Shown in pieces: positions 4,714 through 60,500 of a stretch of DNA of 64,000 nucleotides. Positions within the stretch are counted from its first letter, which is position 1; every line of letters starts with the position of its first letter. Source of the stretch: an uncultured Pseudomonadota bacterium (GTDB taxonomy: Bacteria; Babelota; Babeliae; Babelales; CAIQNR01); NCBI GenBank assembly GCA_964433415.1, contig CAYSQM010000007.1:4291-68290 (forward strand). The letters run 5' to 3'. The position numbers were made by a program, and so were the translations under genes. The notes beneath the pieces were generated by a model. The model saw nothing but the letters and a program-made list of their open reading frames with translations, searched no databases and was not told the origin of the DNA.

Positions 4714-5013
4714 ATGTCAGAATTAAAAGTAGAAGTGGCTCAAGAAGCTCCAAAGAAAAAAGCTAAAAAAAGAGTCGCTAAGAAAGCTGTAGCTAAGAAG
4801 AGAGTAGTTAAAAAAGCTGCTCCTAAAAAAGCTACAAAAAAAGCTGTAGCTAAGAAGGCTGTAGCTAAGAAGAGAGTAGTTAAAAAAGCTGCTCCTAAAA
4901 AAAGAGTAGCTAAGAAAGCTGTAGCTAAGAAGAGAGTGGTTAAAAAAGCTGCTCCTAAAAGAGTAGCTAAGAAACGCGTTGTAAAACGTAGAGCTGCTCC
5001 TAAAAAGCGCTAA
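4714..5013 (+). CDS. Histone H1-like / Hc-like lysine-alanine-rich basic protein (99 aa)
   Basis: A GGAGAGGG Shine-Dalgarno precedes the ATG. The protein is almost entirely K/A/V/R/P with reiterated AKKAVAKKRVVKKAAPKK units, and a strong terminator follows immediately. Confidence 0.75.
   Translation: MSELKVEVAQEAPKKKAKKRVAKKAVAKKRVVKKAAPKKATKKAVAKKAVAKKRVVKKAAPKKRVAKKAVAKKRVVKKAAPKRVAKKRVVKRRAAPKKR
4786..4960 (+). repeat. Three near-identical 43-45-bp copies inside the K/A-rich gene
   Basis: The unit gctgtagctaagaagagagt(a/g)gttaaaaaagctgctcctaaaa occurs at about 4786, 4858 and 4918, an in-frame spacing of 72 and 60 nt. Confidence 0.8.
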
Positions 5014-5033: not shown

Positions 5034-5069
5034 GAGTCATATGCCGTTCTGGTATATGACTCTTTTTTA
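5034..5069 (+). terminator. Rho-independent terminator
   Basis: The stem gagtcatat/atatgactc encloses an 11-nt loop and is followed by a TTTTTT run, 21 nt after the stop codon. Confidence 0.8.
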
Positions 5070-5462
5070 TTGAATACGAATTTTAGGATATAATCGCGAT
5101 AATGAGCATGAAACTCAACGAGGAAATCGCAATAAATAAATATTTTGCCTTCACATAACCAAAAATTTATTTTTGAAAATCCAAGCAATCTTAAAATGCA
5201 ACTAATTAAATTAAGAAAAGGGTTATGACCATACCCTTCAACTATTTATAAAGTTTCTAGTATAATCAAACCCTTTATATTTTTTTAAAAATCCAATAAT
5301 AAGCTTAAATTGAGCTTTTCTATCAGAATCTTTTTCCATAATTAGCAATCTAAAAAATTAGCTAATAGGAGGGAAAGTCGAAGCAATAAAACTCACTACT
5401 AAAAATGCTATATATTTAATATTCATAAGTTACCTCATATTGTTAATAGTTCAATTTATTCA

Positions 5463-5491
5463 TTGAAGCCAAGTATAAAGAAGCTTATAAT
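5463..5491 (+). promoter_or_regulatory. Candidate sigma-70-type promoter for ORF 5664..8426
   Basis: TTGAAG, a 17-nt spacer and a consensus TATAAT would give a 5'UTR of about 165 nt that contains a small gcagct/agctgc hairpin at about 5550-5574. Confidence 0.4.
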
Positions 5492-5663
5492 AAAGGTCAA
5501 TATACTTTGGAGGTTAAATAATAGAAAATAGACTTGGATGATATCTTTGGCAGCTGATTTTAAAATTAAGCTGCAACATAAATGATTCTTTACAAAAAAC
5601 CGTGGCGTGTTAAATTTTGTGGATATATTTGATCAGATTAATTAAGGAATAAAGAGTTTTTTT

Positions 5664-8426
5664 ATGGAAGTACAGGTTGGTTCTTTTAATACTATTATAG
5701 CAGCATTAAGTACGATTTTTTATGAGATCAACAACTTATTTTCCAGCATGCAGTTTTTGCTTTATTTACAAATATTTGCAGTAACTTTCAAATTTGTTTT
5801 ATTAAGTTTCTTTATTAAGCATACTATTTCAAATAAAAACATTCCACCATCATGGATTTATTTCTTTTTAGTTTTGGTGGGGTCTTGTTTTGAAGATATT
5901 GCGTGGATTGTTTCATTAATACGTTGTATAGGTTCTTTTGATAAGAATAATATTTTTGTTCTTACGATAATTCGTTTTTCATGGGCATTTGTTATCATTA
6001 TGTATCAGGCACTTGCGTTATTTATAGAAAGTTTTACTCAGCGACATATTAGACCATCAAATCATCAGCTCTTTTTTTCAGTGATAAGTATTAGTTTTGT
6101 ATTTTACGAAGTATCGCTTTTATTTTTTTCTGGGGGAACACGTACTTCTTTTGAATTTTTGGTTCAGCGCTATCTATCTAGCTATGTTTTATTTTTTTTA
6201 ATGCCAGCAACACTTTTATATGTTTTTATAAAATTACAAAAAGTATATCTTCCAAAAATATTAAAGAGTCAGCTTGTTGTTTTTATGAAATATTATATTT
6301 TACCATTAGTAATTGCCAATATTGTTCAAATGTTCCCCTTTGCTTCAGATAGCACTAAGCAAGCAGCCAGTAGTTTGAGTATTGTAGCATGTTCTTCTAT
6401 TGTATTGACCTTAGCATTGTTTTATTGTTTTAAAAGAATTATGGGGTTGCGATTTTTAAATTATCATGATCATGTTCATTCATCTGATGGTTTTAATTTT
6501 ACTGATGATTTTAAATTGATTTTAGAATCTTTAGCTTCTGCAACTAATCTTCTTGAAATAAAAATGCTCACTCAACGATTTTTTAAACAAAATTTTCATT
6601 TGAATAATTCTAATGTCGCGCTTCACGTTCGAATTTTAACTAGTACTGTTTATTCAGATCATACAAAAGTAGTTTTACAAGAAAAAGAGGTATTAATTGA
6701 ACATTTTCTTGAAATTAAGACCGATGATGAATCAATGCATAAGGCGATTTTAGAGTATTTAAAAAAATATAGAATTCTTATTTATGATGAAATTGAATAC
6801 AATGATTTTTATCAACATCATGAGATTCGTGGAATTATGCTTAATTTTTTAAAAGAAATAGATGCGGATATATTTTTACCTATTTATGAGCAAGATACAG
6901 TTATCGCTTATATTATCGTAGATCGTTCTATGCATTCAAAAAAACTTTATAGCAATGTTCAACGTGATGAAATGCTAGTTTTCTCTCGCTATCTTTCTAA
7001 TGTTATTAATTTATTACAAAATAGAAACCTTAAAGAGCTCTTAAAAGAACGTAAAGATATTTTGGAAGAACTTTATATTAAACATCAGGAAATTAATCAA
7101 TACAAAGAAAGTATTCGTTCATTTTTACGTAATAATGAAAATAGTTCTGGAATTATTTTTTATAAAAATCATAAATTTGTTTTTGGTAATGAAATAGCAC
7201 AAAAGTTAATTGGAATTAATCCTAATGCTCAGGAAGGCCATGTTTTTACACGTGCATTAAAATATTTGGTAAAACAGGCTCAGTTATATAAAACAACACA
7301 AACACAGTTTGTAAAAGATGATAATGGGCGCCAATTGGTTTTAACGGGTATTGCTCATGTTGATAATAATTTTATTACAATCATGATTCATTACCCTGAA
7401 ATTTCTGATATTATAAAACAACAAATCGATATGATTAAAGATTCTTCAGATTGGGATTATTTATTATATCTTGAAACAACAGAGTCTGGTAAATTAGTAA
7501 ATGAGCTCATTCCTGGTACAGGTGAAGTGCTGCTTAATTTTAAGATTAATCTATTAAAGCTTGCTCTTAGTAAAAAAGCATTAGTTCTTGATATTCAAGA
7601 TGATGATTTAATGGCTATAGTTGAATTGTTGCATCATGTGAGTTTGCGCGAGACACTTTATACTTTAGATTTACAAAATCAGATTAAAAATTCAGACATT
7701 GCGATAAAACTTTTTGGTATTAATCCTTTGTTTGGTGAAAGTACTACGCAGCCACTGCTCGAAAAATTAAATAAAAAGGGTACTTTATTTATAAAAAATA
7801 TTCATTTACTTGATCGTGAGTCTCAGGATAATTTGGCTCAGTTTATTCGTTATGGGTTTTATGCTATTTATAAAAGCGATAAACGTGTTCAAAGTGATGT
7901 TCGTATTATTTTTTCTACTCATCAGAATTTAGAAAAATTGGTAGAAAATAATTTATTTTCAGCTGCTTTATTTTCAGAGATTCGTACTGCTTCATTGAAT
8001 ATGCCGCGTTTGTTCTCTTTACCAATGGAAGAGGTGGGAGGGCTGGTAGATGGATTTACTCAACAGGCAGTGGAGTCTCATGATTTAGATAATCTATTAT
8101 CATTAAATGATAAAGAGCGTACTAAAATTTCTATTCAACGCCCAGTAAGCTTTGCGGGTCTTAAACAACAAGTTAAACAAGTTGTTTTGAATAAATCATC
8201 AAAAATTAATAACAATTATTATGAAGCACATCTTGATTCTAGTAATAAAATTATTGATTCTGAACTTATTGGTGTAGCACAACTTGGGAAAAAAGCATTA
8301 CGTGACCAAAAAATGTTAATGCTTTTATGGGATAAATTTCGCAATCAAAATAAGATTGCTATATTCTTGGGAGTTAATCGCTCATCAGTTTCTCGGCGAT
8401 GTAAAGAATTTGGTTTAGTTGATTAA
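5664..8426 (+). CDS. Polytopic membrane protein fused to a degenerate sigma-54-activator (bEBP) AAA+ module and a Fis-type HTH
   Basis: The N-terminal ~260 aa contain about 7-8 hydrophobic helices. The C-terminal part reads GTLFIKNIHLL...VQSDVRIIFSTHQNLEKLVENNLF...LNMPRL, which aligns with the NtrC central domain, and it ends in the HTH NKIAIFLGVNRSSVSRRCKEFGL. The Walker A, Walker B and GAFTGA positions are all substituted. Confidence 0.7.
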   Translation: MEVQVGSFNTIIAALSTIFYEINNLFSSMQFLLYLQIFAVTFKFVLLSFFIKHTISNKNIPPSWIYFFLVLVGSCFEDIAWIVSLIRCIGSFDKNNIFVLTIIRFSWAFVIIMYQALALFIESFTQRHIRPSNHQLFFSVISISFVFYEVSLLFFSGGTRTSFEFLVQRYLSSYVLFFLMPATLLYVFIKLQKVYLPKILKSQLVVFMKYYILPLVIANIVQMFPFASDSTKQAASSLSIVACSSIVLTLALFYCFKRIMGLRFLNYHDHVHSSDGFNFTDDFKLILESLASATNLLEIKMLTQRFFKQNFHLNNSNVALHVRILTSTVYSDHTKVVLQEKEVLIEHFLEIKTDDESMHKAILEYLKKYRILIYDEIEYNDFYQHHEIRGIMLNFLKEIDADIFLPIYEQDTVIAYIIVDRSMHSKKLYSNVQRDEMLVFSRYLSNVINLLQNRNLKELLKERKDILEELYIKHQEINQYKESIRSFLRNNENSSGIIFYKNHKFVFGNEIAQKLIGINPNAQEGHVFTRALKYLVKQAQLYKTTQTQFVKDDNGRQLVLTGIAHVDNNFITIMIHYPEISDIIKQQIDMIKDSSDWDYLLYLETTESGKLVNELIPGTGEVLLNFKINLLKLALSKKALVLDIQDDDLMAIVELLHHVSLRETLYTLDLQNQIKNSDIAIKLFGINPLFGESTTQPLLEKLNKKGTLFIKNIHLLDRESQDNLAQFIRYGFYAIYKSDKRVQSDVRIIFSTHQNLEKLVENNLFSAALFSEIRTASLNMPRLFSLPMEEVGGLVDGFTQQAVESHDLDNLLSLNDKERTKISIQRPVSFAGLKQQVKQVVLNKSSKINNNYYEAHLDSSNKIIDSELIGVAQLGKKALRDQKMLMLLWDKFRNQNKIAIFLGVNRSSVSRRCKEFGLVD

Positions 8427-8525
8427 TTAATTAGAAATGATCCAGGCTTATTTATTGCCTAATAAGCTTAAATACGTTACTATGCTTCCACAAGAAGTGA
8501 TTAACTATTTGAGGAGAATTTTCTG

Positions 8526-36209: not shown

Positions 36210-37592
36210 GTGTTAGTCTTAATTTGGCAAGATTTTTTAACTATAGCAAAAGATGAAGCAGGGAGCCGTGTTGTTGAAACATGGCTTAAGGCTGTATCTT
36301 TGTATCGTTGGGACCAAGATACTCAAACAGTGTATGTAGAAGCTCCTAATGCATTTGTAAAAGAATGGATTCAGTTGCGTTATCAACAATTATTTGAAGT
36401 GCATCTGGGGCGATTATTACATGCCGATAATTTAAAAGTCATATTTTTTGCTAAATCTGAACAAAAAAATAATAAACCAGTTGATCTTCTTCCTACTATG
36501 CGCAAACAGATAGTTCCTGCTTTAGTTAAAAATTCATTAGTACGACGAGCGGCAAATTATACTAATGGTGGTTTGAACCCAATTTATTGTTTTGATAATT
36601 TTGTAGTTGGTTCAAGTAATTCATTATCATATGCAGCAGCGGTTGCCGTTGCACAAGATCCTGGTAAATTATATAATCCATTATTTATTTATGGAGGATC
36701 TGGTCTTGGTAAAACGCATCTGATGCATGCTATTGGTAATGAAATTCATAAGAAAAATCCAAGTGCTCATATTTTATATCAGACAACTGATTGTTTTGTA
36801 AATGAGTTTATTAATGCGATTCGCTTTAATAAAATGCATGCTTTTCAGCAAAAATATAGAGCTTTAGATCTTTTACTCTTAGATGATATTCAATTTATTT
36901 CAAACAAAGAGCAGACTCAAGAGGCATTTTTTCATATTTTTAATGTTCTTCATGATGCTCAAAAACAGATTGTTTTTACCAGTGATCTTTTTCCAAGGCA
37001 AATTCAAGGTCTTGCAGAACGTTTGCGTTCTCGTCTTGAGTGGGGATTGTCTACTGATATTCAAAAGCCTCAGTTAGAAACAAAAATTGCTATTCTTAAA
37101 AAGAAAGCTGCACAGCATGGTGAAACATTAGATGATGATATTGCAGAATATATTGCGCATTATGTGCATTCCAATGTGCGTGAGCTGGAAGGCTCATTAG
37201 TTCGTATTTTTGCATTTTCTTCACTTACTCGGCAATTAATGTCATTAGAACTTGCAAAATCTGTTTTGGGAGATAGTTGTGTTCCTGATAAAATAGTAGA
37301 AAAAGTTGATTTTAATAAAATCACTATGCAGGTCTGTAAGCTCTATTCATACACTTTATCTGAACTTCGCTCTACCAACAGAGCAAAAGAATTGTCTTTC
37401 GTACGTCAAATTGCTATGTATTTAATGAAAAAGATGACAAACAGATCTCTGCGCGAAATTGGATCCTATTTGAGGAGAAAAGATCATTCAACTGTAATTC
37501 ATGCATTTGAGAGAGTAAAAGAAACCATTCAAAGTGATGAGGTATTGCGGTTGAGAATCAAATCATTAGAGGAAAATATTTTGCGGCAGTAG
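36210..37592 (+). CDS. dnaA: Chromosomal replication initiator protein DnaA
   Basis: It has a GTG start, Walker A GGSGLGKTHLMHAIGN, Walker B LLLDDIQF and the C-terminal DnaA signature VRQIAMYLMKKMTNRSLREIGSYLRRKDHSTVIHAFERV. Confidence 0.95.
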   Translation: MLVLIWQDFLTIAKDEAGSRVVETWLKAVSLYRWDQDTQTVYVEAPNAFVKEWIQLRYQQLFEVHLGRLLHADNLKVIFFAKSEQKNNKPVDLLPTMRKQIVPALVKNSLVRRAANYTNGGLNPIYCFDNFVVGSSNSLSYAAAVAVAQDPGKLYNPLFIYGGSGLGKTHLMHAIGNEIHKKNPSAHILYQTTDCFVNEFINAIRFNKMHAFQQKYRALDLLLLDDIQFISNKEQTQEAFFHIFNVLHDAQKQIVFTSDLFPRQIQGLAERLRSRLEWGLSTDIQKPQLETKIAILKKKAAQHGETLDDDIAEYIAHYVHSNVRELEGSLVRIFAFSSLTRQLMSLELAKSVLGDSCVPDKIVEKVDFNKITMQVCKLYSYTLSELRSTNRAKELSFVRQIAMYLMKKMTNRSLREIGSYLRRKDHSTVIHAFERVKETIQSDEVLRLRIKSLEENILRQ

Positions 37593-43963: not shown

Positions 43964-45193
43964 TTATCCATCAAAACGTAAAGTATTAGTTATAGAGATA
44001 CTTTGTGCTGTGCGTGCAGTCAAGAAGGTGATTATTAAACTAATTGATAGGGTGATAATAAGTACTATTCCTATGGTGACATAATTCATGCATATAGGGA
44101 GCGTAGATACGTAGTAAGAATCTGGAAGATGAATAAAAGGATAAGTTTGGAGAACCCATCCTATGGCATAGGCGCCAATAAGTCCGCATAAAGTAGCGAA
44201 TAAAGTAATAAAAAATCCCATAAAAACAAAGATATTAATGATAGATTTTTTTGACATTCCTAGTGTTTGAAGAAGTGCTATATCAGTACGTTTATGGGTA
44301 ATTTGTATAAAGAGCAGTGCAATAAGATTGGTGGTAGCAATAAGAACAATAAGAGCTAATAAAAAAAACATTACATATTTTTCAAGCTTTGCAGCCGATA
44401 CTAATGCCGGGTATAAAGTTTTCCATGAATTAACTTCTGTTTTAAAATCCTTTTCAAGCGTTTGTGCAAATTCTGTTTCATTAATATGAGGGGATAGTCG
44501 TATCCCAATTTCAGTAACCAAGTCTTCACCGGTTATTGTTTTCATTAAGTCATGTGAACCAATTAAGAGATATTTGTCATATTGAATGATGCCGGTTTTT
44601 AAAATTTCTCCAACTGTAACTGTCATAGACTTAAAATTAAGATTTTTTGTGTCAAATTCATCTTCAGCGCTAAATAAAATTGTTATAGTGTCACCAATGC
44701 GTACGTCTAAGAAATCTGCAAGTGTTGTGCCAATAATCACCTTATTTTTTTCAAGTGCTGTAATAAGTGAATGAGAATAGAGTAATTTTTCTTGAAGACT
44801 AGAGACATTGTTTTCTTGTAGTGGATCAATTGCTTTAAAATAGACAGCCGATGCGGTGCTTGATCCACTTGATTGAATAACAATTCGTTTAGTATGGACA
44901 GGTGCGCAAGCTTGAATGGCGCCGGGATAGTTTTTGTTCAATAGATTTTTAATTGCATTAAATTCAAAAGAATTTTCTTGCGGTGCTTCAAGCATTAGTT
45001 GAGGATAAATACTTTGCATTTTTTGAGTTAATGCTTTATCAAAACCATCCATAATAAAAAGTTCAATAGTTAGACTGAGAGTGCTTATTGTTATGCCAAG
45101 AAAACAGACTTTTGTAAGAGTGCTAATGCTTGTATTGTTATATGATCCACGTATGTATCTCCATGCTAGGTATTGCGCAATTTTCAGACTCAT
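43964..45193 (-). CDS. Lipoprotein-releasing system permease (LolC/LolE, FtsX-like)
   Basis: It starts MSLKIAQYLAWRYIRG and has a large periplasmic loop between TM1 and TM2, followed by three C-terminal TMs. Confidence 0.85.
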   Translation of the reverse strand: MSLKIAQYLAWRYIRGSYNNTSISTLTKVCFLGITISTLSLTIELFIMDGFDKALTQKMQSIYPQLMLEAPQENSFEFNAIKNLLNKNYPGAIQACAPVHTKRIVIQSSGSSTASAVYFKAIDPLQENNVSSLQEKLLYSHSLITALEKNKVIIGTTLADFLDVRIGDTITILFSAEDEFDTKNLNFKSMTVTVGEILKTGIIQYDKYLLIGSHDLMKTITGEDLVTEIGIRLSPHINETEFAQTLEKDFKTEVNSWKTLYPALVSAAKLEKYVMFFLLALIVLIATTNLIALLFIQITHKRTDIALLQTLGMSKKSIINIFVFMGFFITLFATLCGLIGAYAIGWVLQTYPFIHLPDSYYVSTLPICMNYVTIGIVLIITLSISLIITFLTARTAQSISITNTLRFDG

Positions 45194-46394: not shown

Positions 46395-46455
46395 GCGTTT
46401 TTATTATGATTGCATCATGAATACAGATTTAAATTAAAGATTGAAGGATTTAATA

Positions 46456-49197
46456 ATGAAATATATAAGAAAAATATTTGTACTTTTTCTTTTTTTAAAT
46501 TTTAATTTTTCTATTTTTTCATCTGACGCAAAAAAATTTAATGCAGAAATTTCTTTTGTTACTATTATGAAGAAAGAAAGAAAAGATGCAGAATTGTTTG
46601 ATAATGGATTAACTAGAGCATCTCTTAATAAGATTTCTCCTTATATAGAACAATATATTCTTAAAGGAGAAAATTTATGCAGGATACCGATTTCTAGAGT
46701 TTATATAAAATTAATTTATTTAATAACTCAACACTCTCATGATATTCCAACTATTGAAAAAATTTTTATTAAAGATGGTTTACAGAAATTAAAAAATAAT
46801 AAAGAAAAAATTAAGTTCTTATTTGAATTGATCAAGTCTATTAGTTTTTTAGAATCGAATATCAATGAAGAAGTAATTGATTTGTTTTTTAGAAAAATTT
46901 TTGAATTAAGAGATGAAACAAAATTTGATGCCATTGAATTATTTAAAGAATTTGACACAGAAGAATATCTTTTAAAATATAAAGATCAATTTAAAAAATA
47001 TTTGTTAGAAAAAATAAAATTTCAATATAAACCAGTGCCAATTGCTAGGGTTAATCTACCTATTTATAATGAAATATCTATTTTATTATTTTCTCCAGAT
47101 TCATCATTATTATTAATTGATGGTGATGATAAATTTAATACTGTTATGTATGATGTTAATTCTTTTAAAAAATTATTTATTTTAACTATATATGATAAAT
47201 TGCATATTATGACTAATCCTTATTTAACAAAATTTTCATATGATAGTAGATGGTTTGTGAGGGTATCGCCAAATGCTGTTACTCTTTATAATGCCAAGAA
47301 TGGAAAAGAAGAGATTTTTTTATTAGAATCTGATGTGCAAAATGTTATTTTTTCTCCTGATTCTACTAAATTACTTCTGCAAAAATCTGATAATTTTTTA
47401 ATCTATGATATAAGTAAGAAGAAAAAAGATGAAATTCTTTTTCAAATAAGCGCACAAGATAAACTATTTAATAAAATTAAAAAAATAATGTTTTCTCCTT
47501 CAGGTAATCTATTATTTATAGAATCTTTGAGTAAAAAAATTATTTATAGACCTAATAGCAAATTATGGTCTGAGTCTAAAGAGTCTATTAATAAAATAAT
47601 TGTTATTAATATTAATACAGGTGAAAATCTCTTTTCTATAGAAAAAGAAGAACCTTTTTTCCCTGGATCATGTTTTTTAAGTGATACGCAATTATTGATA
47701 AATCATGGTCAAGAACTTATTAAATATGACATTCAAAATAGAGATGAATCACCTATAAAAATTAGTCAAGAACATACTAATATTAATACTGTTTTTATAG
47801 TGCCTAATAATAAGCTATTAATTAAATTATTAGATAATTGTATACTGTATGATCTTAATACAAAAAAATATTCATATATATTTAAAGAAAATTATTTTAA
47901 TTTAGAAAATAAAATTCAAGAAGTTAAGGTCTCTCCTTGTGGTAGAGAATTATTAGTTCGATCTGAAAATAAAGTTATTGTGTATGATTTTGAAAAAAAA
48001 GAACCTATTCTTTTAATAGAAAAAGGTGAAGCTGATGAGCAACATAATAGAAATATTTTTGCTGCTACATTTTCACCTACTGGTGCACAATTAATTACTC
48101 AGTCTGTGGATAAAACAATAATTCATACTATTTCTGATCATCATGATATCTTTAATTATTTTATAAGAAATCAAGGATATTGTTATTCTTTATCTCTATC
48201 TAGTAAAGAAATAGAATTAAAGCGTTATGAAATTTCAACAATAGAACATCAAATTTCTTCTTTTGAAGAAGAGGTAGTAAAATTTAAAAGAAGATTGTTA
48301 AAGGAATTTAGCGTAGAAGATATTTACAATATTTTAAAATTTTTATTTTCTGAAAAAATGCCTTCTTATTTTAATTTACAATTAAATAAAGAGGAATTAA
48401 AAAAGTATGAAATACAATTAAATGAAGAAATTTTTGAAGAGAAAAAAGAAAAAAAGAAAAAAGAAAAAAATGAAAAAGAAATTAAGGAAAATATTGTTGC
48501 AGGCTCTTTTACTCCTGAAGAAAGAGATGAATTCTTTGCTTCAAAGTATGAATTGTTTAGGGGTGAAGTTTCTGAAGAGGCAAGAAAATACTCAGAACAA
48601 AAAGTTGTCTATGAACCAAGGGTTGAACTTTGGTATTCTGATCCTGATAAGCGAATTGAGCAAGATTATAATAGTCCTAATGCAGAACAATTTAAAAAAA
48701 ACTTATTAAAAAAATATGGGAAAGATTCAATTGTTTTTAATCACCAATTTCCTAAAATATTGGATTATTTTCTTATTGGTGGATATGAACAATTTAAAGC
48801 CTTTTTTCATAAAAAAACTAATAAGTATTCTTTACAAGTGCCAGGCTATTATAATTCATTAATTAATCCTGAAAAACCTAGGCGTTTTGGTTTTTTTGAA
48901 ATTACTTATGAATTAGATGGTAATATTAAAAAAGTTTATCATAGATTTTTTAGAGAAGTTGAAACATTTGATGATCTATTAAAAGCTAGGCAATCAACAA
49001 TTACAGAAGAAATTATAATTAATAAAGAAGCTGATATACTTACTAAAGACTTTAATGGTTGGAAAATTGATAGAAAAGGTGAGGATGATTGGAAAGCCTA
49101 TTTGATGAAAGAAGATGAAGGTATTCTTCTTTTTAAAAATCCTGTTATTGAAAATCCTTTTTATGTATTATTGCCATGTTTATTAGAAAAAGAATGA
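46456..49197 (+). CDS. Large secreted protein with PD40/WD40-like propeller repeats, a K/E-rich segment and an unassigned C-terminal domain
   Basis: I prefer the ATG at 46456 (MKYIRKIFVLFLFLNFNFSIFS signal) over the TTG at 46441. The repeats include FSPDSSLLLI, FSPDSTKLLL, FSPSGNLLFI, VSPCGRELLV and FSPTGAQLIT, followed by EEKKEKKKKEKNEKE. Confidence 0.6.
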   Translation: MKYIRKIFVLFLFLNFNFSIFSSDAKKFNAEISFVTIMKKERKDAELFDNGLTRASLNKISPYIEQYILKGENLCRIPISRVYIKLIYLITQHSHDIPTIEKIFIKDGLQKLKNNKEKIKFLFELIKSISFLESNINEEVIDLFFRKIFELRDETKFDAIELFKEFDTEEYLLKYKDQFKKYLLEKIKFQYKPVPIARVNLPIYNEISILLFSPDSSLLLIDGDDKFNTVMYDVNSFKKLFILTIYDKLHIMTNPYLTKFSYDSRWFVRVSPNAVTLYNAKNGKEEIFLLESDVQNVIFSPDSTKLLLQKSDNFLIYDISKKKKDEILFQISAQDKLFNKIKKIMFSPSGNLLFIESLSKKIIYRPNSKLWSESKESINKIIVININTGENLFSIEKEEPFFPGSCFLSDTQLLINHGQELIKYDIQNRDESPIKISQEHTNINTVFIVPNNKLLIKLLDNCILYDLNTKKYSYIFKENYFNLENKIQEVKVSPCGRELLVRSENKVIVYDFEKKEPILLIEKGEADEQHNRNIFAATFSPTGAQLITQSVDKTIIHTISDHHDIFNYFIRNQGYCYSLSLSSKEIELKRYEISTIEHQISSFEEEVVKFKRRLLKEFSVEDIYNILKFLFSEKMPSYFNLQLNKEELKKYEIQLNEEIFEEKKEKKKKEKNEKEIKENIVAGSFTPEERDEFFASKYELFRGEVSEEARKYSEQKVVYEPRVELWYSDPDKRIEQDYNSPNAEQFKKNLLKKYGKDSIVFNHQFPKILDYFLIGGYEQFKAFFHKKTNKYSLQVPGYYNSLINPEKPRRFGFFEITYELDGNIKKVYHRFFREVETFDDLLKARQSTITEEIIINKEADILTKDFNGWKIDRKGEDDWKAYLMKEDEGILLFKNPVIENPFYVLLPCLLEKE

Positions 49198-54440: not shown

Positions 54441-54561
54441 TTCTTAGAAATGGCTTTAAAAAAAAATGAAGTAAAAAAATTGTTGTATTTTAAGTAGTCC
54501 TTTTCCTAAACTTTACTTTAAAGGTTAAAAAACTATTAGTAATTTTTTGGAGAGTGATTTT

Positions 54562-57500
54562 ATGAAAAATTTAAAAAATACAAAATTGGGACTCATTTTT
54601 TTTGCAGTCAGTCTCTTTTCTTTTATTGCCATTAATAATATCTCAGTTGCAATGGAAGGTGAACTAGGAGAAGCCTTTGGTGGGATGGATGTTGAAGCGC
54701 TGGGCAAAGAATTTAGTGAAGCTGCAGCAAATGCTGAAGAATTTGTTGATAAAGCTGCACAAGAAGGTAACGAATTTACTAGTAATAAAAACGTTGAACA
54801 GGAATTAGCGAACGCGCAAGAAGGTTTGCAGAGCCAGTCAGCTGTTAGCCCAGAAGATTCAGTTTCGTTTTCAAGTGGCGGTGACAGTGTTATGAGTAGA
54901 AGTATTAGTAAAGATAGTTTTTCTGACTTTCCACCACCGTCACCTCATATGACTGAGTCAGCAGGGTTGGTTCAAGAACAAACACCTATGCAAACAAAAG
55001 CTATTAATCAAACTACAGTAGAAACAAACACCCCACGATTAAATAACATGTCAGATCCAGTTGAGCCTGTTGCTAAAACAACAGATGCAGTAGGTGATGC
55101 TTTATTAAAAAAGGGACAAGCAGCTTTAGACGTTAAATCTACTACAGCTGATCTTGAAACGGCAAATGCGCAATTAAAAGATGCAAGTAATGCCCTAAAA
55201 GAAGCAAAAAGTAGTGGGGATCCTGATGCTATTTCTACTGCAAATAAAAATTATCAAGATGCCCTTGAGCAACAAGGTAAAGCTTTAGATGCGCAAGCTT
55301 CTGCTAAAGCCGCATTAAAAGATGCTGGCGCACAAGCGAGTTCTGCAAATGCTCATAATACAGACAGTTTGGCAAAGCAAGCATCAGAACTTAAGTCTCA
55401 AATGGGATCTAAATTAGAAAATGCTAAAAGTAGTCTTGAAGCAGCTCAATCTGATTTAGAGGCTTTTGAACAAACAAAACCAAATGAAGCTGATTATGAA
55501 AAAAATGATGATAATAATGCTTGGATTAAAGCTAATGATGAGTATGAAGAAGGTTTGCAATCAAAGCAAGCTGCCGTTGAAAAGGCTCAAGGAGAAGTTG
55601 AGTCAGCTCAGAAAAATTATGATGCAGCGTCTAAGGCAGCAGAAGGTAAATCATTTGCTGCTAAAGCATGGGATTTTGCAAAAGGAAAACTTGAATTTAT
55701 TGCAGAACAACTTGTACAAAGTGTTTTATTTTCTATAGTTCCAGAAATTTTTCAACAATTAAGTCAAACTTTACAAAATAAAGCTTTATATGCAGATATC
55801 ACAAGTGTCAAAACATTTGCGGGTATTAATATGAAAATACCTTCTGGTTTAGTGCCAAGTGAAAATCCTTTAGGTGGATTATTTATTTATTATGATGTGC
55901 AGCCAGGAAGTAAAATTACCAATGCCTACTTACGTGACCCAAATCGCCGTTGGTTTGTTTCTTATGATCCAACAGGATTTGCTGAACCTGGAACTTATTA
56001 TATAGGTGCAAGTAATTTTCCAGACTCTATGTTGGAATTGAGTACAGGCCTTATCTTTGATGCGTCTGGTTCTGTAGTCTATCCTTCATATAGCCCAAGT
56101 CAATCAATGCCATTTACTATGCCAACATCATTACTTTTTAATGATACGAGTACTGTTTCCAATACTGCATTATGGAGTTCTTCACCTAAAATGTCTATTG
56201 AAGCTGCTTTAAATGGGCTTACTACAAGTGTTAATGGTTCTTCTAAGAGCTCTAGTTATGGTAGTCTTGATCCTGTTAACATTTTCTTTGGTGGAGCAGG
56301 TTCTTATGATACAGGCCCAGATTCTAATAGTAATCTTAAGTATTTATTTACTACCCCGTCTTATTATTCAGCTAATCTTTCTTATCCTCCAATAATGCAT
56401 TCTACTCTTTTACAATATGTAACTCCTACAGAAAATGCATTAACTAATTTTGGACAACCTGCTGTGGGGCAAGTCCAAGGGGTGGCAATTTCTTTACAAG
56501 AATTAGCTGGGTTAGGAGATTTAGCAGAAATTTTTGGGGCAGCTTATTTTAATATATTTATTAACCAATCATCTTCTTTAAGTCCAGCAGATTCAGCTGC
56601 TTATTCTGCTAAATTAAAGAATTTTTATGAAGGTCTTGCGGCATTAAGATATGTTGATCCAGCAAAAGTTACCGATCCAAATGCACAGTTAGTAGGTACC
56701 ACTTTAGAATTAACAAATAGTGCATCTTTGGATCATTTAATTTCTTCTTTAACAACTGCTACTGCTCAGAATACTAATGGTTTTGATCCGCGAGATCATT
56801 TGATTGCTCACGGTCTTCCAATTTATCAAACGGATAGCACTCCAACTGCACAATTTTTAAAAGATTTTGTATCAGCTACTTCAAGTTCTGTTTTGGCAAA
56901 ATATGTACATGATATAGTAGTTCCTCTTGATACTAATAAAATGCCTACTTTAGCAATGATTCCTACTGTTACTAATGGGTCAGTCAGTTTTCAAGCAAAT
57001 CCAGCTGTCCAATACATTACGAGTTTGGTTTCTGGTTTAACTTATCAGCAAAATAGTGGTTATAATATGCCGGTTCAAAGTCCTAATGGTGGTGCAGATA
57101 ACACAATAGCATCGTCTATTCTTAGTTATATAAGTACACCTTCAAAATGGCCAGTATCCATTTTGATTTCTCAACAAATTTCACAAATTCGTAGCTTGTT
57201 TAATACTGCAATTACAGAAGGCCCTTTTAATTTAAGTGGTGGACTTCAAGCGTATCGCGTTTCTCTACCTGCAATGTTAAATGCAGTAGTAGATGGAGTT
57301 ACTAATCAATCTTTAGTTAATAATTGGATTGGTAATGTAGCTGAACAGATACCAAATACAGCATCCTTTCCTGATTTTAATCAAAAAATGGCCTTGTTAG
57401 CAGATGCGTTTGTATATACTATTCCTAATGCATTGCAAGGTATTGCTTCTGATGGGGTGACTGTTATTTCTTTACCTGATTATGTGGTACCTATTATGCA

Positions 57501-60500
57501 AGATTTAGTGAATAAAGATTGTTATTTGATGGTGCCATTAGGTTGTCAGGCTTCCACTAATAGTATCGGTTTTGGAATGCCTAGTCAGCAAATATTTGGT
57601 TTGATAAGTTTGGTTACTTCTAAATTTTATAATCCTGATTATACATTAAAAAATGATCCAGTAGCTGATTCTTTAAAAATTGGAAATCCTCCTTCATTGC
57701 CTACAGTTTTAGGAACAGCATTTGTAGAAACTGATTTTAATCCATTAAACTTTACCAATACAGGTACTAAATCTAGCCCTGTATATACTCCTCTTAGCCC
57801 CTATATTGTTACTATTCCATCATTGTATTTCTTAAATCTGAATGCTTTTTCATTTTCTTTTGGATTGCTTCCTGTTCAATCAACAAGTTCAGAAGCAGGT
57901 ACATCATCTGCTGGGGCTACTTTTATTACCATTGGAGGAGGAAAGCCAGCTCCTTTAGGTATTCCTTTAAATATGTTGCTTCCTCAAGGGTTTACTGGTA
58001 TTGCTCCTAATTCAAATTCTCTTAATAGTACTATTCCTGGGTCTTCTACTCCTTCTACGGGGGTGACATCTTATACTAATGCACAATTGGTTTCTGCAGA
58101 AAGTGGAAATTTACCAAGTGTGAGTGCAGTACACGCTTCATGGTTTACTTATATGAATAGTATAAGTGCAGGTTCAATTATGTTAGAACTTGATCCTCAG
58201 TATATTTGTAATAATAATGGGTATTCAGATTGGACAATTACTGCTACTAATATTGCCGATGTTAAGAATGGTAATTATTTCTATACCACTAATCAAACTT
58301 CAGGACTATACGTATTAGCTACTTATGGAAATGGTGGTACTACTACTTCAGTAAATATTTCTGGAAAATCTGTGTCATTAAGTGATTTTTCTGGAATTGG
58401 TGCAAATTTTAGTGAAGCAGCAAGTAGTAATGCTTTAATTGATGTAGGAACAGGTTCGGTATTAGTTATAGTTCCTGGATCAAGTTCTTCTACTACCACT
58501 ATGGCTCCTTTAATGCGTTATTCTGTAGCTAGTGGTACTAATTCTCCAGCATTATTAGCTCCTATTTTATTAGATCCACAAGCAGTTACTGCACTTGCTT
58601 TAAAAAATCAACAAACAAATGCTGAAAGTAAAGCTCCTTCTGCTCAATTATTGTCACGTATAGCTTCTTCTCAAGGAAATAGCACGAATACTACAGTAAT
58701 GGGTCCTTATTCTTATGCTGGATATTCTTTGACTGTTGATAGACAGTTGTATAATGATGGAAATTATATTTACACAGCTAAAGATTCAACTGGTGCCATT
58801 AAAGACTACCTCATAACTTATGATTCTTCATCAACTCAAGTATATAATAAACCATTTTCTATCAATTCAAAAATGGTAAGTATGTTGAATGGAAGATTGT
58901 TTAGTGCGTCAGGAGTAAATAGTAGCACTAATGGTGGGATATTCTTTGGAATAAATAATTTTGATCTTTCAAAAGCTCCTGAAACGTGTGAAGGTTTAGT
59001 TGTAGGAGTAAGTGGTGTTCAAATTAATTCAATAACAGAACCAACTATTATAAATGATATTGCAACTCTTGCAGCAACGGTAAATAATGAGGTTATTAAT
59101 CAAAGTAATATTATAGATGATTCTGAAGCTATTGAAGATAAAGTTTTTGCTCTAGCGCAAAAATTACATATTCCTTATGCTGCTCTTAATTCTACACAAC
59201 CTATTGCGAGCATTATTGGTCAATCTGTCCAATTTAATGAAGAAAATGGTATTCTTACGGGGCAATTAGTTCAAGATACTAATGGGCAATTTTATTTACG
59301 TTCAGCAATTCCTACTGGTACGTCTTCAGTTAATGGCGCAACCTTAGCTTATTCATATTATCAATTTGATATTTCACAGTTGCCATCTGCAAAAACTTTA
59401 GATAAAAATAAAATTTTGCAAATGCCAACCGGTGTTTTTTATGATCAAAATGGTAAAGCAACTTCTGTATTAGTTGGTAATGCTGCTTTAAAAATGCTAT
59501 CAGCATATGGTCTTGTTATTGCGCCTTCTAATCAGTTAACGCTTGGTCTTCCACTAGTCAGACAATCGTTGCCAATGACCGTAAGTGACTATAATGTTGA
59601 AAGTAATAGTTCTGCTTTATTAAATGGGGGAAATGGATTATTAATGCAAAGACTTCCAGGAACTTCTGTTATTAGTGGTTCTTCAGCTGATTATTATTTT
59701 TATAAAAATATTTTCCATGCAGGAGCATCAGCAGCACAGTTGGAAGCAGCTGAAAATAATGCGTATGGGGCTTATAACGATCCTTATTCTCCTTATGATC
59801 TTCTATTGCAAGTTAATCCAAAAGTTAATCCTCAAGCACCTTCAATTCCTGCAGGGGATCCTTATTTTGCAAGTCTTTTAACAGGAATTACTTATGGAAT
59901 GGATGGAACGCAACTTTATGAAAATTGTGAACTATATTTCCAAAATATAGGAAATTCTTCATCTGCTCCTGCTTCAAACTTGCCATTAATAGTCTGGGGT
60001 GATGGAATTGCTAATACTCAAGCGATATTAGGTTCAAGTGATATTTCAATGGTAGATGGTATTCAAGTAGAAGGTACTGATTTTGTTAATTTTAATACTT
60101 ATCAAATCGATCCTTTTGGATGGTCTTTTGAATATGTTTCTCCATCTGATGCTTCTAATAATCCAGTAATTTATACGCTTACTTATCAAGATCCAAGTTA
60201 TTATTTAAGCGCGGGTAATCCAGGTTTTTCATTCCAAGCATACCCTCCAACTGCCGTACCTAATAGTGAAGGCGAGTATATTTCTCAACTTACGGATTCA
60301 AAAGGGAATGTCACTTATGTTATAGAAAATAGTGATGGTGAAAATACACCATTAATTCCAGGGCAAATCTTTAAAGTTGACTCTAATGGGGCACTTATTG
60401 CAACCTATGGAGAAACTGCAGTTATTCCTTCTGTAAGCTCAGCATTGTCTCTTGCTGATAATAATACAGCAGTGCTTTCTGCAATATGTAATGCTGTAGC

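Follow-up and report, generated by a model that had tools for sequence, protein, structure and literature searches.

A putative membrane-embedded regulator of Dependentiae built on an ATPase-dead sigma-54-activator scaffold and paired with a small hydrophobic-peptide gene

What can the AAA+ module of a sigma-54 activator do once it stands behind a membrane domain and has lost the motifs for ATP and for sigma-54 contact? The question is raised by a gene at 5664..8426 of the stretch of DNA analysed here (64,000 nucleotides; the window), the product of which was read in an earlier note as a polytopic membrane protein ending in an inactivated enhancer-binding protein (EBP) module, an 'unusual one-component design'. 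EBP homologues that lack GAFTGA and depend on sigma-70 are known as a class, the 'atypical EBPs': TyrR, DhaR, HupR, PhhR, HsfA, NtrX and VpsR work at sigma-70 promoters, where each is known or believed to activate or repress together with sigma-70 RNA polymerase (PMC6158489, PMC3162934). In VpsR only the Walker B motif is altered, and 'some' atypical EBPs have a non-consensus Walker A or B (PMC6158489). In principle, then, the design has precedents, of which it is an extreme form. Here we describe the domains of the protein, its family and its gene neighbourhood, which together suggest a membrane-embedded DNA-binding regulator on a sigma-54-activator ATPase scaffold.

Architecture of the 920-residue product

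The open reading frame begins with ATG and encodes 920 residues, as first described. The gene and its regions are as follows.

5664..8426, plus strand: regulator gene (920 aa), comprising seven transmembrane (7TM) helices, a GAF-like domain, a long helix, a PAS-like domain, a pseudo-AAA+ domain of the bEBP type and a helix-turn-helix (HTH) (ORF, AF2 models)
5748..6455, plus strand: seven-helix membrane domain, aa 29-264, predicted N-out/C-in (hydropathy, AF2, positive-inside counts, invariant columns)
6498..6938, plus strand: GAF-like cytoplasmic domain, aa 279-425, assigned with low confidence (AF2 helix/strand topology, weak Foldseek, GAF_2)
6954..7133, plus strand: continuous helix of 60 residues, aa 431-490 (AF2, column conservation)
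7149..7391, plus strand: PAS-like domain, aa 496-576 (AF2 topology of five strands plus helices)
7392..7523, plus strand: linker leading to the AAA+ domain, aa 577-620, with the invariant motif WDYLLYLETT.SGKL (column conservation)
7524..8213, plus strand: bEBP-clade pseudo-ATPase AAA+ domain, aa 621-850, alpha/beta subdomain plus lid (Pfam, profile, Foldseek)
8259..8423, plus strand: four-helix HTH, aa 866-920 (AF2, conservation, HTH-family matches)

A Kyte-Doolittle scan (19-aa window, threshold >=1.6) yields seven hydrophobic segments (aa 29-52, 64-86, 95-121, 135-158, 170-192, 203-223 and 234-259), and beyond residue 280 the hydropathy never rises above 1.17. Helices in the AF2 models coincide with these segments, with an extra, weakly hydrophobic N-terminal helix at aa 2-26. 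Across 23 family members, lysine plus arginine amounts to 2.7, 2.65, 2.74 and 1.7 in loops 1, 3 and 5 and the segment after TM7, compared with 0.2-1.2 in the N terminus and loops 2, 4 and 6, a distribution that fits an N-out/C-in topology. Hydropathy, models and charge pattern thus agree on seven TM helices, within the seven to eight originally proposed, and because of these helices and the positive-inside pattern the HTH is placed in the cytoplasm. Polar residues are conserved within the TM helices as invariant columns (K43, D78, W81, R104, W107, Q115 and E122). No Pfam family matched the membrane domain, and Foldseek detects only weak similarity to 7TM bundles (TM-score about 0.5).

The middle of the protein, previously left unassigned, is divided by structure prediction into a GAF-like domain, the 60-residue helix and a PAS-like domain, the GAF and PAS assignments coming from AF2 models of medium confidence (pLDDT about 71-73). 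Foldseek matches of the GAF-like region (phytochrome GAF-PHY and DhaR(N) 4lrz) are weak, at E 1e-3 to 1e-2, and GAF_2 is detected at E 0.05 in 2 of 13 family members. For the PAS-like region a sequence-family search gave nothing significant; JGI annotators call homologues 'regulator with PAS, ATPase and Fis domain'. The long helix, with 18 of its 60 columns invariant and the near-invariant motif EELY.KHQEINQYKESIRSF, is probably a dimerising signalling helix.

At the C terminus, AF2 predicts four helices at aa 866-915, the NCBIfam models DhaR, NtrX, TyrR and PrpR align as far as aa 915-918, and the recognition helix, IAxFLGVNRSSVxRR, is nearly invariant. A C-terminal HTH is present, and its position, too, agrees with the Fis type proposed; the HTH_8 match to the last 60 residues is below threshold (E 0.0026-0.15, 12-18 bits, gathering cut-off 22), and several further HTH families match the same residues.

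An EBP-type AAA+ domain that has lost its motifs

The resemblance to the bEBP central domain is significant. PF00158 matches at E 2.5e-9 (37.5 bits, above a cut-off of 20.2), covering only profile positions 89-167 of 168, and PF14532 matches at E 4.2e-10. A phmmer search of the PDB finds NtrX (5m7n, E 3.7e-7), and a profile of the family aligns with the entire AAA+ domain of NtrC4 (3dzd), lid included, at E 2.2e-15, as well as with NtrC1 and PspF. By Foldseek, the model matches NtrX (E 9e-11), ZraR, DmpR and PspF, the last with a TM-score of 0.70 and an rmsd of 4 Å. PF00158, the family profile against NtrC4 and Foldseek agree that the domain is homologous to the sigma-54 interaction domain. 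Its motif positions are the following.

7593..7613, plus strand: Walker A equivalent IQDDDLM, aa 644-650 (HMMER register against 'ITGESGTGKEIV' of 3dzd)
7722..7745, plus strand: GAFTGA equivalent NPLFGEST, aa 687-694 (alignments)
7794..7799, plus strand: Walker B-equivalent pair K711 N712 in GTLFIKNI, canonically GTLFLDEI (alignments)
7956..7982, plus strand: arginine-finger region FSAALFSEI, aa 765-773 (alignment to FRADLLDRL of PspF 2bjw)

In the HMMER register, the losses at Walker A, Walker B and GAFTGA that were read from this one sequence are confirmed, and they extend through the family. Where Walker A should read GESGTGK, the family consensus is PEEDLxP, without a glycine-rich loop or lysine. 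The L1 loop reads GINP--LFGES in the GAFTGA register, with two residues deleted. The Walker B pair is QN (36), KN (31), EN (8), HN (1) or RN (1) and never DE, N712 being invariant. Both arginine fingers of PspF are replaced (R162 by S, R168 by E), the 'PPLRER' register reads 'PrLfsL', and the register of sensor II (PspF R227, in NIRELKN) is a stretch without Arg. Neither GxxGxGK nor GAFTGA occurs in any of 82 family ORFs from 84 related loci, and GAF[TS]GA is absent from the family members. The losses are fixed throughout the family and do not reflect decay. With Walker A/B and GAFTGA not restored by alignment, seven TM helices and a significant PF00158 match, the original reading of a membrane protein with an ATPase-dead EBP module stands; to judge from its sequence, the protein should be unable to bind or hydrolyse ATP, or to contact sigma-54, through any known element.

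A phylum-wide family and its relation to known regulators

More than 800 full-length homologues share 44-77% identity. Hundreds have about 900 residues, and every named one comes from Dependentiae/Babeliales; likewise, the family occupies 138 places in species-representative genomes, and wherever a record title is informative it names Dependentiae, Babeliales, TM6 or Babelota. The N-terminal 590 residues are matched by 387 cluster representatives, the best 150 of which are nearly all about 900 residues long. The family is specific to Dependentiae, a parasitic phylum, and distributed throughout it.

The closest characterised relatives are atypical EBPs. NtrX is the best PDB match in both sequence and fold and DhaR the best NCBIfam match; orthology to DhaR, NtrX or TyrR is not supported, their NCBIfam equivalogs scoring 30-43 bits against cut-offs of 551-600. 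Like TyrR and DhaR of E. coli, NtrX of Brucella, VpsR of V. cholerae, HupR of R. capsulatus and PhhR of P. putida, the Dependentiae regulator has a homologous AAA+ domain and a C-terminal HTH and has lost or altered GAFTGA, and it shares with DhaR and TyrR the placing of GAF/PAS-type sensor domains ahead of the AAA+ core. Known atypical EBPs mostly retain nucleotide binding. In the Dependentiae protein, by contrast, neither Walker motif is left, nor either arginine finger, nor sensor II, whereas those described so far retain the nucleotide site at least in part; it carries an N-terminal 7TM fusion whereas they are soluble, and its family is restricted to one phylum and paired with a small peptide gene. 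With canonical bEBPs (NtrC, NtrC1, PspF, ZraR and DmpR; PF00158) it shares the fold and the sensor-AAA+-HTH order, and in the lid and the C-terminal two thirds of the AAA+ domain the sequences are clearly homologous, but it is membrane-embedded and has no known ATP or sigma-54-contact elements.

On balance, we favour a Dependentiae-specific, membrane-anchored one-component transcription regulator, independent of ATP and of sigma-54, that arose from a GAF-PAS-AAA+-HTH EBP and a 7TM sensor. What we infer of DNA binding, signal flow, target promoters and the role of the peptide is the following. The ancestor would have been an enhancer-binding protein of the DhaR/TyrR type of layout, which gained a seven-helix membrane sensor at its N terminus and the AAA+ module of which turned into a pseudo-ATPase. 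The 7TM bundle would sense a signal in or at the membrane and pass it on through the juxtamembrane GAF-like domain, the long dimeric helix and the PAS-like domain; the catalytically dead scaffold and its HTH would be rearranged, and the HTH would thereupon bind or release DNA at sigma-70-type promoters without ATP hydrolysis or sigma-54 contact. The regulator would in this way couple a membrane signal to DNA, and its first target would most likely be the short control region common to the regulator and the divergent peptide gene. What the scaffold contributes, perhaps oligomerisation, is a guess, because we know of no characterised EBP version without any P-loop.

A direct route from envelope to DNA is also taken by ToxR-like proteins (ToxR, CadC and TcpP), which join a membrane span and a cytoplasmic DNA-binding domain in a single polypeptide, as predicted here; ToxR and TcpP have the small membrane partners ToxS and TcpH. 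ToxR-like proteins combine an OmpR-type winged HTH at the N terminus with a single TM helix and a sensor domain in the periplasm, whereas the Dependentiae regulator has seven N-terminal TM helices, three predicted relay domains in the cytoplasm and, at the C terminus, an HTH of putative Fis type, and the two have no sequence relationship. The seven N-terminal helices, the C-terminal HTH and the lack of a Trans_reg_C match set the 920-residue product apart from the ToxR-like layout.

A divergent gene for a small Pro-Pro peptide

Upstream of the regulator lie the following features.

5061..5311, minus strand: internally deleted remnant of an HhH-GPD (endonuclease III-like) gene (tblastn with the intact L086 orthologue)
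5358..5426, minus strand: small ORF of 22 aa, MNIKYIAFLVVSFIASTFPPIS, divergent from the regulator (sequence, conservation, motif statistics)
5472..5500, minus strand: promoter-like TTGACC-17-TATACT upstream of the small ORF (scan and conservation)
5589..5616, plus strand: TTTACA-16-TG-t-TAAATT with extended -10, about 45 nt before the ATG (scan and conservation)

The small ORF has a GAGGT Shine-Dalgarno sequence 7 nt upstream and is conserved in the related loci L085 and L086, with four synonymous and five conservative codon changes and its frame and stop intact. A divergent ORF with a PP tail is present at 62 of 77 loci, compared with none of 77 on the plus strand and 62 of 1,540 random windows (4%), at a median of about 86 nt from the regulator start. 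The peptides match no known family and share one design: a basic N terminus, one hydrophobic helix and x-P-P-x(1-3)-stop. Tandem paralogues (L019, L020, L037, L046 and L056) own separate, diverged copies with different tails. The regulator is thus almost always paired with a previously unnoticed hydrophobic-peptide gene. The best reading is that regulator and Pro-Pro peptide are functionally coupled; the peptide would serve the regulator as a membrane partner or ligand, or else be what it chiefly regulates.

One sub-case of the favoured regulator, which we entertain only tentatively, is a peptide-signalling cassette, pheromone-like or autocrine, in which the small ORF would encode a pre-peptide and the 7TM domain of a receptor that itself binds DNA would recognise its C-terminal tail, [D/E]-x-P-P-x-x, once exposed or released. 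In its favour, besides the tight pairing and the private peptide of each paralogue, are the K/R near the N terminus of 62 of 63 peptides (N-in, tail out), the exactly two residues after PP in 44 of 63 and the E or D at position -2 in 24 of 63, and the conserved charged and polar residues inside the receptor's TM helices. Production, processing and export of the peptide are, however, hypothetical, and the neighbourhood contains no conserved peptidase or exporter gene; the peptide could instead remain a membrane subunit, like MgrB or ToxS, or simply be a regulated product, and quorum signals are not an obvious need of obligate intracellular bacteria. In agrD/agrC and shp/rgg, too, a very short hydrophobic peptide gene adjoins, and is often divergent from, a regulator gene; peptide-pheromone systems form paralogous cassettes with diverged peptides, and AgrC-type receptors sense peptides through a 6-7 TM domain. 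The likeness observed here is one of gene arrangement only (62/77 loci, paralogue-specific peptides): a histidine kinase, a TPR-type (RRNPP) receptor and AgrB-like or PptAB-like genes are all absent from the vicinity, and the motif x-P-P-x-x-COOH is unlike known pheromones; peptide signalling is putative.

Candidate promoter elements between the two genes

Regulator and peptide genes have sigma-70-like -35/-10 elements, and no -24/-12 element stands upstream of the regulator. The promoter-like TTGAAG-17-TATAAT first proposed does exist at 5463-5491 (plus strand), but promoter-like matches in the upstream region are not enriched (22, compared with 26.9 +/- 4.9 in shuffled sequence), and relatives at 77% and 62% identity do not share the element. 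What is conserved in those relatives is the overlapping minus-strand TTGACC-17-TATACT, as the block TTAAAGGTCAATA, the reverse complement of its -35, plus the -10; these blocks fit a promoter for the divergent small ORF. The best candidate promoter of the regulator is TTTACA-16-TG-t-TAAATT, of which the CTTTACAAAAAA block and TGnTAnATT are conserved in L085 and L086; a similar TTTACAAA...TG.TA is present in L006, L012 and L013, and more distant loci have AGTATAAT 30-45 nt 5' of the regulator start. Neither the promoter nor the long 5' untranslated region once proposed is supported. The analysis found no DNA target and no operator, and across 77 loci the sequence upstream of the regulator shows no enriched palindrome.

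Much of the 650-bp spacer 5' of the regulator is filled by the decayed HhH-GPD gene, an intact copy of which stands at the equivalent position in L001, L003 and L086. In tblastn, residues 3-45 of the L086 protein match 5311-5186 (E 5e-6) and residues 174-217 match 5192-5061 (E 9e-6).

Gene neighbourhood and a possible tether

Downstream, and in the orientation of the regulator, 66 of 84 loci carry a xerC/D-like gene and 47 carry PBP2 (mrdA), often within 15-100 bp; this conserved synteny could point to a non-transcriptional role. In the window, dnaA is at 36210-37592, about 28 kb from the regulator. A membrane-DNA tether, in which the HTH anchors a chromosomal site to the envelope and, for example, coordinates resolution or segregation with wall growth, would explain both the linkage and the position, and a membrane-anchored HTH necessarily draws bound DNA to the membrane. 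We judge it improbable. Gene order is conserved over the whole region (thrS ... S20, L28, FtsH), so the linkage may be mere inherited synteny in reduced genomes, and an elaborate 7TM-GAF-PAS input suits a signal-responsive switch better than a static tether, just as tight pairing with a peptide gene suits regulation.

The sigma-54 question and selection on the dead domain

A genuine sigma-54 activator, working through a non-canonical nucleotide site or a partner's ATPase, is a very remote prospect, close to refuted by the sequence. The significant PF00158 and PF14532 matches speak for it, as do NCBI/JGI names such as 'sigma 54-interacting transcriptional regulator' and the one perfect TGGCAC-N5-TTGCA in the window (44717-44732, minus strand). 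That site, however, is intragenic: it falls within an FtsX-like coding sequence, and the next start is about 780 nt away. The elements for ATP binding, hydrolysis and sigma-54 contact are all missing in register, family-wide. The scan of window ORFs (64 kb) revealed no RpoN. In 974 kb of Dependentiae DNA there is likewise no RpoN box, no GAFTGA and no bEBP P-loop, which is weak evidence because that DNA is mostly the same syntenic region. A literature search found no paper connecting Dependentiae with sigma-54; small-genome endosymbionts usually lack it (PMC3162934).

That the protein is a decaying relic, a pseudogenised EBP domain carried by a membrane protein functional in its N-terminal half, would account for the loss of every catalytic motif but is flatly contradicted by conservation: the C-terminal half is the best conserved (28 of 165 columns invariant in the alpha/beta core, 20 of 55 in the HTH), hundreds of lineages keep the full-length architecture, even where the sensor half has only about 26-30% identity left, and no truncated AAA-less versions occur among the top matches. 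Mean majority frequency is 0.74 in the pseudo-ATPase core, 0.80 in the linker, 0.79 in the long helix and 0.81 in the HTH, compared with 0.50-0.53 in the sensor domains; the dead domain is therefore under selection and not decaying, and purifying selection is strong. In the linker, 15 of 44 columns are invariant, and its motif by itself sufficed to retrieve the family in a search of genome contigs.

Architecture of the regulator

Re-reading the open reading frame at 5664–8426 (+) returned the 920-aa product exactly as quoted in the earlier note, and hydropathy analysis resolved the hydrophobic N-terminal helices described there into seven strong segments between aa 29 and 259, with no comparable hydrophobicity beyond aa 280. 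These segments coincide with helices in two AlphaFold2 models (full length, pLDDT 70.9; N-terminal 592 aa, pLDDT 72.9), both of which contain an extra N-terminal helix that is weakly hydrophobic and poorly conserved. Over 23 family members, Lys+Arg averages 1.7–2.7 in the loops after TM1, TM3, TM5 and TM7, as against 0.2–1.2 in the N terminus and even-numbered loops; this positive-inside pattern places the N terminus outside and everything past TM7 in the cytoplasm. Polar residues conserved within the helices (K43, D78, W81, R104, W107, Q115 and E122) are of the kind that a site for a ligand or ion would have. In Foldseek searches of the PDB, the membrane part gave weak matches to GPCR-type seven-helix bundles (TM ~0.5), and the domain is an unclassified 7TM bundle. 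Directly after TM7, at aa 265–272 (window ~6456–6479), lies a conserved juxtamembrane motif, RFLNxHxHV, in which H270 and V271 are near-invariant and which may face a metal or lipid.

The cytoplasmic middle region is predicted to comprise two folded domains joined by a long helix.

Middle region of the regulator as modelled by AlphaFold2
aa 279–425, mixed α/β domain (GAF-like)
aa 431–490, single continuous helix
aa 496–576, five-stranded α/β domain (PAS-like)

The sensor halves (7TM plus middle domains) of 13 family members matched no significant Pfam family, and Foldseek against the PDB returned no more than weak, generic matches for the 7TM and middle domains (E ≥ 1e-3); those of the middle part were to phytochrome GAF–PHY modules and the GAF–PAS N terminus of DhaR (4lrz). 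The names GAF-like and PAS-like are therefore held at low confidence.

An enhancer-binding module without its catalytic motifs

Homology of the C-terminal part to bacterial enhancer-binding proteins (bEBPs), proposed earlier from sequence alone, is upheld by Pfam matches over the curated cut-offs (Sigma54_activ_2, E = 4.2e-10; Sigma54_activat, E = 2.5e-9), the alignments spanning the C-terminal half of each profile only. Full-length NCBIfam models of DhaR, NtrX, TyrR and PrpR align from aa ~650–700 to aa 915–918, with scores far under their equivalog cut-offs. With a family profile, the whole AAA+ domain including the lid could be aligned to NtrC4 (3dzd, E = 2.2e-15), NtrC1 and PspF, and Foldseek superposed NtrX, ZraR, DmpR and PspF on the predicted structure (best E = 9e-11), with TM 0.70 and an r.m.s.d. 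of 4 Å for PspF.

Read in HMMER's own alignment register, each of the following positions is replaced or lost.

Motif replacements in the AAA+ module
Walker A, GESGTGK: IQDDDLM
GAFTGA: NP--LFGES, two residues shorter
Walker B, DE: KN
PspF R162 and R168: S and E
'PPLRER': 'PrLfsL'
Sensor II arginine: absent

The earlier comparison with NtrC was thus correct in reporting the loss of Walker A, Walker B and GAFTGA; the losses at the PspF R162/R168 positions, 'PPLRER' and the sensor II arginine extend it. The regulator is a bEBP homologue, yet of the catalytic and sigma-54-contact features that would qualify it as a sigma-54 activator it retains none. Databases call it a 'sigma 54-interacting transcriptional regulator', a name that is consequently probably wrong and would falsely imply sigma-54-dependent regulation in Dependentiae genomes.

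Conservation across Dependentiae

A word-indexed search returned >800 homologues, of which the best 120 are all ~890–935 aa and align over their full length at 44–77% identity; the only names on these 120 are 'Candidatus Babeliales/Dependentiae bacterium'. In species-representative genomes, the family motifs WDYLLYLE and LW[ND]KFx[NS]QN match at 138 places, where all informative record titles read Dependentiae, Babeliales, TM6 or Babelota. Many family-bearing metagenome-assembled genomes (MAGs) are titled 'Proteobacteria' or 'uncultured Pseudomonadota' (related loci L006, L007, L008, L010, L022 and others); these labels are probably wrong because the Dependentiae synteny (thrS, regulator, xerC/D, PBP2) is found in these MAGs as well. 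Searched alone, the N-terminal 590 aa matched 387 cluster representatives; almost every one of the top 150 is ~900 aa long, so the sensor half was not seen shuffled onto other outputs.

All 82 family ORFs compared lack both the P-loop and GAFTGA, and their Walker B pair reads QN, KN or EN; the recognition helix of the helix–turn–helix (HTH), IAxFLGVNRSSVNRR, is near-invariant across the same set. Scored by domain, conservation peaks in the HTH (0.81), followed by the WDYLLYLETT linker (0.80), long helix (0.79) and pseudo-ATPase core (0.74); the 7TM (0.50) and GAF-like (0.53) domains score lowest. The dead domain and HTH thus outscore the sensor domains, the reverse of what a decaying relic would show. 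The dead AAA+ domain and the HTH are under strong constraint. Several Dependentiae genomes carry second copies, tandem or dispersed, and all copies are devoid of the catalytic motifs.

Loci with duplicated regulators
L003, 12947–15664 (+)
L023 and L059, in one genome (OY969622.1)
L019, L020, L037, L041, L046, L056 and L071

A divergent micro-ORF accompanies the regulator

The strongest functional clue found is the pairing of the regulator with a very small gene on the opposite strand.

The micro-ORF and its counterparts
Window, 5358–5426 (−), 22 codons, product MNIKYIAFLVVSFIASTFPPIS
L085 (77% protein identity to the regulator), 134–202 (−)
L086 (62% protein identity), 5693–5770 (−)
60 other loci

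In the window, the micro-ORF has a GAGGT Shine–Dalgarno sequence and lies downstream of a minus-strand promoter-like element; relative to its counterpart in the 77%-identity relative, four codon changes are synonymous and five conservative, and neither frame nor stop is disturbed. A divergent upstream ORF whose product has a hydrophobic stretch and then PP among its last seven residues was present in 62 of 77 non-redundant loci, compared with 0/77 when the + strand was searched over identical regions and 62 of 1,540 random windows (4%).

The peptides (20–67 aa, median 32; for example MKKQLFSLITALVVIGSILLDTPPFS and MKLLNHHILSILVLFTTVFADIFPPAG) share a layout of basic N terminus, one hydrophobic helix and an x-P-P-x(1-3)-stop tail. 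Among 63 peptides, 62 have Lys/Arg near the N terminus, 44 have exactly two residues after PP, and Glu or Asp often stands two positions ahead of it. Their predicted topology is N-in, with one helix and a tail of 5–7 residues outside, which would put the PP tail on the side of the outer face of the 7TM domain. In most loci, ~60–110 nt separate the peptide start from the regulator start, and duplicated regulators are each accompanied by a peptide gene of their own, the tails differing between copies (L019, L020, L037, L046 and L056). Neither Pfam nor NCBIfam holds a family for the peptides, and the gene calls of homologous contigs have nothing annotated at this position.

The small ORF could be read as a leader of the HhH-GPD (endonuclease III-like) gene in the same spacer; this is unlikely because it persists where that gene has decayed, as in the window, or is absent. 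A PEP-CTERM-type sorting signal was rejected, as motif, helix and basic residues come in reversed order, and a leader peptide of the regulator is ruled out because the ORF lies on the opposite strand.

Gene neighbourhood and upstream region

The gene order thrS ... regulator, xerC/D-like, PBP2, S20, L28, (IMPase), FtsH is kept in distant relatives; of 84 loci, 66 have the xerC/D-like gene downstream of the regulator in the same orientation and 47 have PBP2 there. Between regulator and xerC/D, a terminator search found a hairpin at 8444–8470 that has no T-run.

The 'long 5′ UTR' of the earlier note did not hold up, in that the 650-bp spacer contains the remnant of the HhH-GPD gene at 5061–5311 (−), in which 45 residues at the N terminus and 44 at the C terminus are recognizable and ~130 middle codons are deleted; an intact copy occupies the corresponding position in the related loci L001, L003 and L086. 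The proposed promoter, TTGAAG-17-TATAAT, is present on the + strand, but alignment with the 77%- and 62%-identity relatives gave no sign of its conservation there, and the conserved blocks at the site fit a minus-strand TTGACC-17-TATA(C/A)T. In the same alignment, a sigma-70-like + strand element, TTTACA-16-TGtTAAATT (5589–5616), is conserved ~45 nt upstream of the regulator ATG. In this AT-rich region, promoter-like matches are no commoner than in shuffles.

An operator search covered the 250 bp that precede each of 77 non-redundant family genes, with gapped palindromes (half-sites of 4–6 nt, gaps of 0–14) plus 7–9-mers; no enriched palindrome stood out, and the only enriched words were a −10-like AGTATAAT, 30–45 nt upstream of the regulator start in 16–28 of the 77 loci, the more distant ones, and (A)GATCAATA just ahead of the start codon. 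The latter, or TAGCAATA, is conserved 2–8 nt upstream of the regulator start (for example in L003, L019, L022 and L046), in the place expected of a Shine–Dalgarno sequence; the peptide ORF, in contrast, carries a strong GGAG(G/T). The element could serve translation, act as a binding half-site or point to a mis-called start.

Sigma-54

Upstream of the regulator, no −24/−12-like promoter was found among the loci compared. Pfam detected no RpoN among ten suitably sized window ORFs, and a motif scan found none in 974 kb of Dependentiae DNA, which says little as this is mostly the regulator locus itself. We found no paper on rpoN in Dependentiae; small-genome endosymbionts are usually without sigma-54 (Francke et al., PMC3162934). 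The window holds 42 sigma-54 promoter matches at ≤2 mismatches against 28 ± 6 expected, which we judged uninformative, and a GG-N10-GC scan was too unspecific. A single perfect consensus, TGGCACAACACTTGCA at 44717–44732 (−) (~0.02 expected from base composition), sits within an FtsX/MacB-like permease gene (43964–45193, minus), ~780 nt upstream of pgk, and reads in frame as G-T-T-L-A.

A model for the regulator and its peptide

Several atypical EBPs without GAFTGA (TyrR, DhaR, HupR, PhhR, HsfA, NtrX and VpsR) work with sigma-70 polymerase (PMC6158489, PMC3162934). The regulator fits this loose class; it differs in the complete loss of its nucleotide site, in its 7TM anchor and in its partner micro-ORF. 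Its likeness to ToxR/CadC-type membrane-bound one-component regulators is functional, the proteins being unrelated, and the gene arrangement resembles that of the agr and shp/rgg peptide cassettes. Following the precedent of the atypical EBPs, we lean towards a model in which it would act as a membrane-tethered, ATP- and sigma-54-independent DNA-binding regulator. The AAA+ shell would be no more than a scaffold for oligomerization and signal relay; the control region common to regulator and peptide gene would be the first target, and the peptide would be the regulator's partner or ligand, or its product. All functional claims made here for regulator and peptide have an in silico basis only.

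A more specific version, which we consider rather doubtful, has the micro-ORF tail [D/E]-x-P-P-x-x read by a 7TM receptor that is the transcription factor itself, the 20–40-aa 'signal-peptide-only' product presenting or releasing that tail. If true, the circuit would run directly from peptide to DNA, needing neither kinase, ATP nor import step: a new kind of signalling cassette conserved over a whole phylum of obligate intracellular parasites and possibly governing a developmental or host-sensing programme of Dependentiae.

Under the favoured, membrane-tethered model, an AAA+ activator could be stripped of P-loop, DE, Arg fingers and GAFTGA yet stay selected as a scaffold, and a polytopic, C-terminal-HTH type would join the short list of membrane-bound one-component regulators; the conserved micro-ORF gives an immediate hypothesis on its input signal. 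Dependentiae parasitize protists and are widespread, but the phylum has hardly been studied and its regulatory repertoires are tiny; merR, yebC and fmdB are the only regulators listed in the Chromulinavorax genome paper (PMC6561590). We found no publications on the present family; as a large, phylum-wide, strongly conserved sensor-regulator, it is probably central to Dependentiae biology.

Other features of the window

Just upstream, at 4714–5013 (+), lies a gene for a 99-aa Lys/Ala-rich repetitive protein (KKAVAKKRVVKKAAPKK...), which resembles chlamydial Hc1 and other histone H1-like nucleoid proteins; the 62%-identity relative has a 116-aa counterpart at the same position (L086, 4574–4924 (+)). 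The window contains dnaA at 36210–37592 (+) (Bac_DnaA, E = 7.5e-67), ~28 kb from the regulator, and is thus close to the replication origin. Two very large ORFs with TTG starts are also present, one of 918 aa at 46441–49197 (+) in a region of unusually low G+C (0.24–0.26 at 46–50 kb) and one of 2,762 aa at 54547–62835 (+).
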